Assembly: GCF_045037415.1 (NCBI RefSeq)
Contig: NZ_CP173438.1
Reading direction: 5' to 3' (one strand)
Length of the DNA: 64,000 bases
From: Escherichia coli
Lineage (GTDB): Bacteria; Pseudomonadota; Gammaproteobacteria; Enterobacterales; Enterobacteriaceae
Shown here piece by piece: positions 1 to 3,000 of this stretch (positions are counted from its first letter, which is position 1; each line of letters begins with the position of its first letter). A program made the position numbers.

Positions 1-3000
1 TAACTAAATTCTGTATTGGCTGTAAGATGCTTACAGTAGATATATTCGTAGTGTATTGTTATATACTGATAGTCGAGTTCATTTTCTTTTATTATAATCT
101 GATTCTGAGTTAACGTGGCACCACGGACTTCAATATAATAATACCTTTCCCATTTTCCATATTTATTAATACGATAAAAATAAAACTCAAAACGGCATCG
201 TTCGTTATTATTAATGCAATTCATCAGCAGCGGTGAGCTTTTATCGAGAATTTTACAAAATTGTATCGCTTGATGATTAATGCCAAATCCTGTGTTACTT
301 ACTCCTCCCTGAAAACTAAAAACAAATATTTCATCCTCATGTCCCTGTTGATACCGATTCCCGACAGAGACTTGCGTCCCGCATCCTGCAGAAATATCCC
401 CTTGTTGCTCCCCTGTAATGCGTAAATATATAATGTCACCCATATGATTATACCCATTTCATAGATTTTAATTATATAATATAAACTTAATAAACATCTC
501 ATTTAGTAATGTATATTAATTATATGTTTGGGCATAACATTTTTTTAATTACGTGATGCACTAATAATAAAGCCGTTTATCTACCAGGTAGAAATAAACG
601 GCTTTATCACATCACCCCACAAACTGCCTGAATAGCGCCTTACCCTTAAGCAGTCGCGCACCCAGCCAGCCGCCGCAAAGCGACAGCAGTAGCGCACCGC
701 TGCACGGCAGCACAATCCACAATCGCCAGTCTGGCTCCCACGGGAAATCAAACACTTTCGATTGCAGTACCGCCAGTGCCGTTTCCGCACCAATTGCGGC
801 CACCAGGCCGGATACAAACCCGAGCATGGCGAACTCACACCACAATGTCGTGCGCAGCAGTTTTTTGCCCGCACCGAGAGTGCGCCACACCACCAGCTCC
901 TGATGACGCTGACGCATTCCCACCTGCACCTGTGCCAGCAACAGCAACATACCGCAGGCGGTGACCAGCACCACCATCACTTCCAGCGCCCGACTTACCT
1001 GCTCCAGCACCTGACCGACCTGTTTTAAAATCGCGCCAATGTCTAACAGGCTAATGGTCGGGAACTGGCGGTTGAGTTGCGTCAACATGCCGTTGCCATT
1101 CTCCCAGCGGAAACTGGTAAGCCAGCTCTGCGGTTGCCCGTCTAATGCCCCTTCCGGGAAAATAAAATAGAAATTAGGCCGCAGACTTTCCCAGTCCACT
1201 TTGCGCAGGCTGGTCACTTTAGCGCGGAACTCCTGGGTATCGCCCATAAAAGTCACGGTATCGCCGAGGGCAACGTTTAAGCGTTTCGCCAGCCCCTCTT
1301 CCATCGACACTTCACCGGCTTTTGGCGGCCAGTTACCGGCGACGATCGGGTTATGATCAGGCCGCGTATTTTGCCAGGTGAGATTCAGCTCGCGGTTGAG
1401 CGCCTCATCTCCATTGCCTTCTGTCGGCTTGTCGTTAATCGCCGTCAACCGCGCCCGCACCACCGGATAAAACGATTCCGGGACTATCTGATGTTCCGCG
1501 AGAAACGCTTTCAGCGGCGTAACCTGTTCCGTAGCGATGTTGATTAAAAAGTAGTTAGGACTTTCTGGCGGTAGCTGCTGTTGCCAGCGGTCGAGCAGAT
1601 CGCCACGCAACACCAGCAACAGTGCCAGCAGCATAAAGGAGAGCGAAAATGCCGAAAGCTGGCTCAACGTCGCCCACGGCTGACGTAACAGGCGGCTAAC
1701 CGCCAGGCGCAGAGGTAGCGATTTCAGCGTCATGCGGCGAAGTACATTCAGCAGCATCCAGCCCAGGACACCGCACAGCAAAGCCAGTACTACCGCGCCC
1801 GCCAGCACCGCCCAGAGCAGCATACTGCCGCCCATCAGCCCGGCGAGCAGTAGCACAACCACCACGGTGACAATCGGCAGATAAAACTTCAGCGGCCAGA
1901 CGTTCGCTACCACATCATTACGTAATACGCGTAAAGGCTGCGTTGCCAACAACAGGCGGTATGGTCGTAGCCCCACCAGCAGCGAAATAACCGTCATGGT
2001 GCCGAGCGCCCACAGCCACGGCCAGAGGCTGGCTGGCGGTAGTGCAGCAGGCAGAACGGGCTTGAGCAGCACCATCAACACGTTTTCGAACAACAGGCCT
2101 ATCGCCCCACCGGTAACGGCTGAAAGTACCAGCACCATCAACCACTGACCGACGATTAACTTACGCAGTTGCGCTCGCCCTGCCCCCAGCGTCTTGAGGA
2201 TCGCCACCAGATCGTAGCGACTGCGACAGTAATGATTCATCGCCACCGCGACCGCCGCCACCGCCAGCAGCAAGGTCAGAAGCGCCGAAAGCAGCAGGAA
2301 CTGTTGCGAACGTTCTATCGATCGCCCCAGCGCGCCTTCGTCCTGTTCCAGACCGTACCAGCGTTGTTCGGGTTTAAGCTGGGGTAACAACCATTTCTCA
2401 TAGCCGTCGAGCTGGTTCTCGCTGCCGCCGAATTTATAACGCCAGGTGACCCGACTCCCCGGCTGCACGGCTCCGGTTTTATCAACATCCGCCAGATTCA
2501 TCATCAGGCGTGGGGCTATCTGGAAAGGATTAAAACCGGAATCCGGTTCCTGAATCACTTCTCCGGCAATCCGCAAGGTGGCATCGCCCACGTCAATGGT
2601 ATCGCCCGTTTTCAGGTTAAGCAGTGCCATCAGGCGTGGGGCCAGCAATACGCTGCCCGCCTGCGGTTTCAGGCCAGGGGGATTAGTTTGCAGATCGCCA
2701 TACATCGGGTAGATATCATCCACCGCTTTGACGTTCGCCAGTTGCGGCGTGTCGCCTGCAAAGGTCATGGTGGCGAAAGTCAGCTGCTTGCCAACTTTCA
2801 GGCCGCGCTTTTGCGCTTCCTCCAGCCATGCTTGCGGCACTTCGCGCGAACTGCGCAACGCCCGATCGCCCGCCATAAACTCACGGCTTTGCTGGCTTAA
2901 GCCCTTCTCCATGCGATCGCTGATATTGCCCAGCGCCAGCACGCAGGCCACCGCCAGGCTAAGCGCCAGCCAGACAATTAATAGCGACGGCGAGCGCCAT

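Follow-up and report, generated by a model that had tools for sequence, protein, structure and literature searches.

A probable Hcp–Tle1 fusion effector gene and its DUF2931 immunity-type genes in the slot beside ybbP in Escherichia coli

The stretch of DNA analyzed here, which we call the window, is a 64,000-nucleotide piece of contig NZ_CP173438.1 from Escherichia coli (RefSeq assembly GCF_045037415.1). It opens inside a coding frame that starts at an ATG at position 443, reads on the minus strand and runs off the window at position 1 after 147 uninterrupted codons. A first-pass annotation had taken this frame to encode an Hcp-like protein, and both the frame and its family hold up on translation and profile search. 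Residues 6–138 match the Pfam family T6SS_HCP (PF05638) over model positions 1–128 of 129 (E=3.8e-14), and the full-length protein of 667 amino acids, described below, scores 123.8 bits against the NCBIfam profile TIGR03344 (TssD), for which the cut-off is 58.9, across profile positions 1–163 of 167. The domain also matches the Pseudomonas aeruginosa Hcp3 structure (PDB 3HE1; E=1e-15). Of this gene, which we refer to as hcp-tle1, the window contains codons 1–147 of 667 (1–443, minus strand), almost all of the N-terminal Hcp (TssD) domain. Short open reading frames that overlap it in other frames (261–425 on the plus strand and 299–502 on the minus strand) are without support.

Upstream of the ATG lies an AT-rich leader (444–566, minus strand; GC about 33%) that is a putative promoter region, where a consensus scan picks out a sigma-70-like site as a pattern match only (548 to 519, minus strand; −35 TTAAAA, 18-nt spacer, −10 TATAAT), about 75 nt ahead of the hcp start codon. 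An Rfam scan of window positions 1–1000 gave no family at its gathering score and only sub-threshold chance matches. Beyond the leader stands an inverted repeat whose perfect 14-bp arms enclose a 13-nt loop (567–607, minus strand), found by an inverted-repeat search and by RNA folding, directly after the stop codon of ybbP (612–3026, minus strand), a conserved core gene with an 804-amino-acid open reading frame that carries the same annotation in strains SK1144 and K-12. The repeat folds at −29.5 kcal/mol (z=−7.25), and although a simple terminator scan called no terminator despite this strong fold, we regard the hairpin as the likely terminator of ybbA–ybbP. Base composition changes here, from 31–37% GC in window positions 1–600 to 55–60% in the adjoining ybbP and ybbA.

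The sequence past base 1 of the window was read not in the window's own strain but in the near-identical E. coli SK1144 (NZ_AP018784.2). Window positions 1–20620 align to SK1144 with 0 mismatches over 20,620 bp, and over the other 44 kb the identity is 99.97%, with one SNP and two small indels between the two sequences; because of this near-complete identity, we take SK1144 to be a sound proxy for what lies beyond the window. There, the hcp frame does not end within a few codons but continues for another 520 codons (positions 18440–20000 of SK1144 segment L001; end of the Hcp domain, linker and Tle1 domain) to give an open reading frame of 667 codons. The encoded protein is laid out as an Hcp domain (residues about 1–149), a proline-rich linker (about 150–172) that contains PPTLLPVEEKPEIPPE from residue 160, and a domain related to the phospholipase Tle1 (about 173–661). 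By annotation and open reading frames in SK1144, hcp-tle1 is followed by three tandem DUF2931 genes and then by mnmH.

In the C-terminal domain, residues 173–661 match residues 30–541 of Tle1 from enteroaggregative E. coli (EAEC), a structure solved by cryo-EM (PDB 6SJL_D), with E=7e-127 and 46% identity over 510 amino acids, and the Pfam Tle1-like catalytic domain PF09994 (DUF2235) is found in the 667-residue protein as well (E=3.7e-10). The GxSxG motif is present, and Ser334 (in GFSRG), Asp382 (in FDTV) and His447 (in SHADIGGG) align exactly with EAEC Ser197, Asp245 and His310, the Ser-Asp-His triad described for the EAEC enzyme (bioRxiv 10.1101/2024.03.05.583533). Because the alignment begins at EAEC residue 30, the Hcp domain and linker stand where EAEC Tle1 has its N-terminal extension. 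A sensitive blastn search of 5,426 complete E. coli genomes with the DNA of the Tle1 domain gave no match beyond the 573 genomes that carry the locus described here; EAEC-type tle1 went unmatched because it is too diverged at the DNA level. SK1144 encodes a second protein with a Tle1 domain, of 622 amino acids, in its type VI secretion system (T6SS) cluster at metV, and with 24% identity to the islet Tle1 domain over 166 amino acids, it reads as a distant relative rather than a recent paralogue.

The three DUF2931 genes of SK1144 are tandem 675-bp copies directly downstream of hcp-tle1, and the first overlaps the end of the hcp-tle1 reading frame by 11 bp; across carrier genomes, the copy number ranges from 1 to 4. 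Their product matches Pfam PF11153 (E=4.3e-24), and the islet proteins are 41–44% identical to the two Tli1 proteins of the Sci-1 cluster of EAEC 042, with many invariant columns; searching PDB and NCBIfam with a DUF2931 protein of the islet returned nothing useful. The islet proteins have a hydrophobic N-terminal segment, and where Tli1-EAEC has the lipobox LLTG-C, they read MIAG-S and have no cysteine in the first 100 residues. We therefore assign them, from their sequences, to the Tli1 family as predicted exported non-lipoproteins, for which a soluble periplasmic location would be expected.

Together, hcp-tle1 and the DUF2931 genes make up an islet of about 4.2 kb between mnmH and ybbP, two core genes that converge on it. 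Its boundaries, set by comparison with K-12 and with strains ST95-32 and SF-173, where the site is empty, fall at position 16370 of SK1144 segment L001 and at about window position 581, the latter within the ybbP-proximal hairpin. In the empty site, 58 bp separate mnmH from ybbP and include the hairpin; the islet takes the place of 36 bp of this site, among them the final two codons of mnmH. The right arm of the hairpin (about 575–618) also occurs at the empty site of ST95-32 and in 128 genomes without the hcp gene, and homology to K-12 picks up again at window position 603. The junction of mnmH and ybbP thus exists in three alternative states: 58 bp, a 7.3-kb rhsD element or the hcp-tle1 islet. 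Hallmarks of mobility are missing from the SK1144 islet: neither an integrase nor a tRNA is present, and direct repeats do not flank it. It looks horizontally acquired, as the first-pass annotation had proposed from the low GC content of the frame, because it stands at about 40% GC (39.7%, against 58.2% in ybbP and 54.5% in mnmH) and because it is polymorphic for presence and absence, the site being empty in other strains of B2.

The same annotation had stated that in K-12 the DNA beyond ybbP leads into rhsD with no hcp, which is true of MG1655, where the rhsD element fills the slot. From this, it supposed that the hcp frame points toward the rhs locus and belongs to an orphan hcp-(vgrG)-rhs island, and it is here that the prediction divides. 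The locus does appear to be an orphan T6SS effector locus off the core cluster, and a complete set of core genes stands elsewhere in the SK1144 genome; but the rhsD element is absent, the islet sits in the same slot, and three DUF2931 genes and mnmH follow the hcp frame. Neither the annotation nor a six-frame list of open reading frames shows a vgrG, PAAR or YD-repeat rhs gene anywhere in the ybbP–mnmH interval of SK1144, and no homology at the DNA level to the rhsD segment of K-12 was found in the islet. In place of the expected Rhs protein with a C-terminal toxin, it is the C-terminal region of this Hcp protein that is the predicted effector.

Window positions 1–620 match 701 of the 5,426 complete E. 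coli genomes in the search set; 573 of these cover the query fully, whereas in 128 the match is confined to a 45-nt hairpin segment beside ybbP. The islet is chromosomal in all 573 carriers, many of which are labelled O25b:H4-ST131, and the full Tle1 part is present and contiguous with the Hcp part in every one of them (573/573). In 545 of the 573, the toxin part is at least 99% identical, and in a few genomes, IS1 or ISKpn26 is inserted in hcp-tle1. The exact 667-residue protein occurs on 807 public contigs, where the sources name it TssD or Hcp; its RefSeq product name is 'type VI secretion system tube protein TssD'.

In SK1144, the aspV site is empty (no T6SS), and the metV site holds a complete tssA–M cluster with intact tssM, three vgrG genes, a PAAR gene and several effectors. 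This cluster has its own Hcp of 163 amino acids, which is nearly EAEC Hcp1 (PDB 4HKH; E=1e-88), and its gene order matches Sci-1; on this comparison, it is of the T6SS-1 type. A labelling of the metV cluster as T6SS-2 was considered and rejected on the grounds of the Hcp1-like Hcp, the Sci-1 gene order and the work of Cummins et al. (PMC10711316), who class the metV-type cluster of ST131 as T6SS-1. Co-occurrence across carriers was assessed with chimeric queries, each joining the hcp-tle1 gene to one tssC gene. The chimera with the T6SS-2 tssC of strain Sakai matched 2,836 genomes in 2,848 places, which puts T6SS-2 in at most 12 of the 573 carriers, whereas the chimera with a T6SS-1 tssC showed two places in each of 23 of the 24 carriers sampled.

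The Hcp domain of the fusion is only about 32–35% identical to the E. coli Hcps compared. It shares 32% identity over 90 amino acids with the resident T6SS-1 Hcp (E=3e-8) and reaches E=0.23 against EAEC Hcp1 (4HKH), as against 35% over 150 amino acids with the Hcp of the Sakai T6SS-2 cluster, ECs_0216 (E=4e-33). Co-assembly of the fusion with the resident T6SS-1 tube is therefore not assured, because the Hcp domain is closer to a T6SS-2 Hcp, yet T6SS-2 is almost absent from carriers. The resident system may itself be broken in some hosts: in the islet carrier MNCRE44, tssM is split by ISEc12, an insertion that 99.8% of the genomes of ST131 clade C are reported to carry (PMC10711316), and hcp-tle1 persists there as one TssD coding sequence at 99.9% identity. 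In such genomes, the toxin is probably undeliverable.

We consider it highly probable, on the strength of these alignments and this gene order, that the window opens in the 5′ part of a gene for a specialized Hcp of the Hcp-ET2 type, an Hcp–Tle1 fusion effector that heads an islet with DUF2931 immunity genes. As described by Ma et al. (2017; Virulence 8:1189, as summarized in PMC6730261 and PMC6099711), Hcp-ET2 proteins are Hcp fused to DUF2235/Tle1 and act as T6SS-dependent antibacterial phospholipase effectors; they belong to the Hcp-ETs, more than 350 proteins in five clans from Enterobacteriaceae, and the Hcp-ET2 prototypes are ETEC PE321 and A31K_02346. In the accounts of Hcp-ET2 covered here, the N-terminal Hcp and C-terminal DUF2235/Tle1 domains likewise share one open reading frame, one or more immunity genes lie directly downstream, and the E. 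coli locus is outside the core T6SS cluster. We found nothing structural in those accounts that sets the islet apart, with the class assigned by described architecture and not by prototype sequence. The ybbP/mnmH site, the association with T6SS-1 and not T6SS-2, and the non-lipoprotein immunity proteins are features absent from the portions of the Hcp-ET2 literature covered. The hcp-tle1 islet is accordingly a real, ordinary and already known kind of locus: its class has been published since 2017, and RefSeq annotates the protein.

Under this reading, the Hcp domain would let the fusion join the Hcp tube of the host T6SS (in these genomes, T6SS-1 at metV), most likely as one fusion subunit among the ordinary Hcp subunits of a ring; one Hcp-ET per ring has been proposed on steric grounds (PMC13323088). 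Against this picture, a Tle1 domain of roughly 500 residues is probably too large for the lumen of a single Hcp ring. On firing, the Tle1 domain would reach the periplasm of a neighboring cell and hydrolyze its membrane phospholipids via Ser334, Asp382 and His447, much as EAEC Tle1 attacks phospholipids from the prey periplasm (PMC9860674), and the exported DUF2931 proteins would protect the producer and its kin from Tle1. The Hcp fusion would stand in for the N-terminal extension by which EAEC Tle1 binds its VgrG carrier.

Two known loci frame this interpretation. The Tle1-EAEC/Tli1-EAEC pair of the Sci-1 cluster (T6SS-1) in E. coli 042 has in common with the islet a conserved GxSxG motif and catalytic triad, and a DUF2931-family Tli1 gene that is duplicated in both loci. 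In contrast, EAEC Tle1 is a separate cargo that binds the TTR domain of VgrG1 by its N-terminal extension (PMC9860674), whereas the islet Tle1 is fused to Hcp, with EAEC residues 1–30 replaced by the Hcp domain and proline-rich linker; the Tli1-EAEC lipobox LLTGC corresponds to IAGS in the islet proteins, which, lacking that cysteine, are not predicted to be lipoproteins; and the islet lies outside the T6SS cluster at 40% GC. The K-12 rhsD element (rhsD-ybbC-ylbH-ybbD-ylbI-ylbG) occupies exactly the same slot between ybbP and mnmH (selU) and is also a polymorphic toxin–immunity cassette. It differs in having an Rhs core protein where the islet has the Hcp–Tle1 fusion, in its length (7.3 kb against 4.2 kb) and in sharing no detectable DNA with the islet.

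Other explanations of the frame fare less well. An orphan hcp at the head of an hcp-vgrG-(PAAR)-rhs island that runs on into the rhsD element was a natural expectation, given that rhsD lies directly beyond ybbP in K-12 and that hcp-vgrG-rhs modules occur in E. coli (for example, Sakai ECs_0234–0237). We give this explanation next to no credence, and for genomes like SK1144, the sequences compared already refute it: between ybbP and mnmH, the 4.2 kb hold only hcp-tle1 and three DUF2931 genes, no homology to the K-12 rhsD segment was found and no carrier has the Tle1 part separated from Hcp. Hardly more credible is that the gene encodes a plain structural subunit of the Hcp tube with no toxin function, as the strong TssD profile match and the TssD/Hcp names in RefSeq and elsewhere might suggest; the protein has 667 amino acids where an Hcp has about 160, residues 173–661 are a Tle1 phospholipase homologue with an intact catalytic triad, immunity-type genes lie downstream, and the T6SS cluster already has an Hcp of its own. 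It also seems very unlikely that the fusion depends for its delivery on a T6SS-2 (aspV-type) apparatus and not on T6SS-1. ECs_0216 is the best match to its Hcp domain among the E. coli Hcps tested, and a different class, Hcp-ET1, reportedly requires T6SS-2, but not T6SS-1, for its delivery (bioRxiv 10.1101/2024.03.05.583533, citing Ma et al. 2017), but the aspV site of SK1144 is empty, and a T6SS-2 tssC is present in 12 carriers at most.

The islet could also be stranded or mainly defensive, with a toxin that is undeliverable in many carriers, and with either selection that keeps the DUF2931 array as protection against Tle1-type attack by competitors or too little time for decay. The disrupted tssM of MNCRE44 beside an intact hcp-tle1, the prevalence of the ISEc12 insertion in clade C, the poor match between the Hcp domain of the fusion and the resident Hcp, the variation in immunity gene copies and the occasional IS insertions that break the toxin gene all lean this way. 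On the other side, the toxin reading frame is intact and nearly invariant in 545 of 573 carriers, its exact product recurs on hundreds of contigs, and tssM is intact in SK1144, although the lack of toxin decay says little because clade C is recent. On balance, we find a stranded or defensive islet possible but rather improbable, and we are a shade more doubtful still of the specific proposal that the sole T6SS of its hosts is a poor match for the fusion toxin or out of its reach. If such a mismatch were real and the gene were under selection, then Hcp-ET2 proteins may join a heterologous tube by some unconventional route, such as incorporation as its terminal subunit, since a toxin domain of about 500 residues may not fit the lumen of one ring, or the islet may be kept for a T6SS-independent or purely defensive role through its immunity array.

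Overall, the Hcp–Tle1 effector reading changes what is to be expected beside ybbP. In ST131-like E. coli, this slot holds an Hcp–Tle1 effector with an immunity array, not an rhs element, and those who study T6SSs can expect to find the mnmH/ybbP junction empty, filled by the rhsD element or filled by the hcp-tle1 islet. The islet travels with T6SS-1 and not with T6SS-2, despite an Hcp domain that is poorly matched to the former. Finally, hcp-tle1 persists intact in a carrier whose tssM is disrupted, a natural situation in which to ask if orphan effectors of this kind remain in use.

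At its junction with mnmH, the 4.2-kb AT-rich islet that carries hcp-tle1 and the DUF2931 genes replaces the stop codon and final two codons of mnmH (position 16370 of L001, the islet-side region of the near-identical genome SK1144, outside the window). MnmH ends in ...EWVKTYACGY in carriers, at 368 amino acids, and in ...EWVKAQ or ...EWVKAR, at 364 amino acids, in ST95-32, where the mnmH–ybbP site is empty, and in K-12, where it holds the rhsD element.

Carriers of the islet have from one to four DUF2931 copies, which are mosaic and share 85–99% identity. The SK1144 annotation marks a frameshift in the copy adjoining the toxin gene (L001 17792-18450, outside the window), and in most ST131 genomes the islet is 1 nt longer than in SK1144. 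The toxin gene is itself interrupted in a few carriers, in which IS1 or ISKpn26 lies within hcp-tle1 and leaves two pieces, a TssD coding sequence and a 'Tle1 domain' coding sequence. In the islet carrier MNCRE44, ISEc12 splits tssM of the metV T6SS-1 cluster (L013, the MNCRE44 cluster, 22652-28570). In the SK1144 cluster tssM is intact (L006 18681-22013), and nearly every other gene has an identical protein accession in the two clusters.

Among the E. coli Hcps tested, the closest to the Hcp domain of the fusion, at 35% identity, is ECs_0216, a small Hcp encoded at the distal end of the Sakai T6SS-2 cluster (L010 8534-9013) and followed by small unannotated open reading frames. Both have the same short L2,3 loop, and ECs_0216 may represent the source lineage for Hcp-ET N-terminal domains.

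Within the window, the SK1144 annotation of identical sequence shows three further items. Between ybbJ and cueR lies a hypothetical gene with a frameshift (9312-9990); a RelE/ParE toxin gene adjoins ybaQ, which encodes a HigA-type antitoxin (15574-16253); and ybaK and ushA are separated by a DUF6896 gene and another hypothetical gene (17887-19187). Apart from acrR, the 64-kb window differs from SK1144 solely by a single-nucleotide polymorphism inside htpG (29269) and the deletion of 12 bp between fadM and ybaV (61139).

The difference in acrR (39022-39756, minus strand) is a 2-bp GC duplication at 39213-39214, which, by comparison with SK1144, shifts the frame past residue ~181 and yields an aberrant product of 244 amino acids rather than the 215-amino-acid repressor. 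Because a 40-nt probe spanning the insertion matched none of the 5,426 complete E. coli genomes, we conclude that it either occurs in this strain alone or reflects a sequencing error. A genuine duplication could derepress the AcrAB efflux pump.
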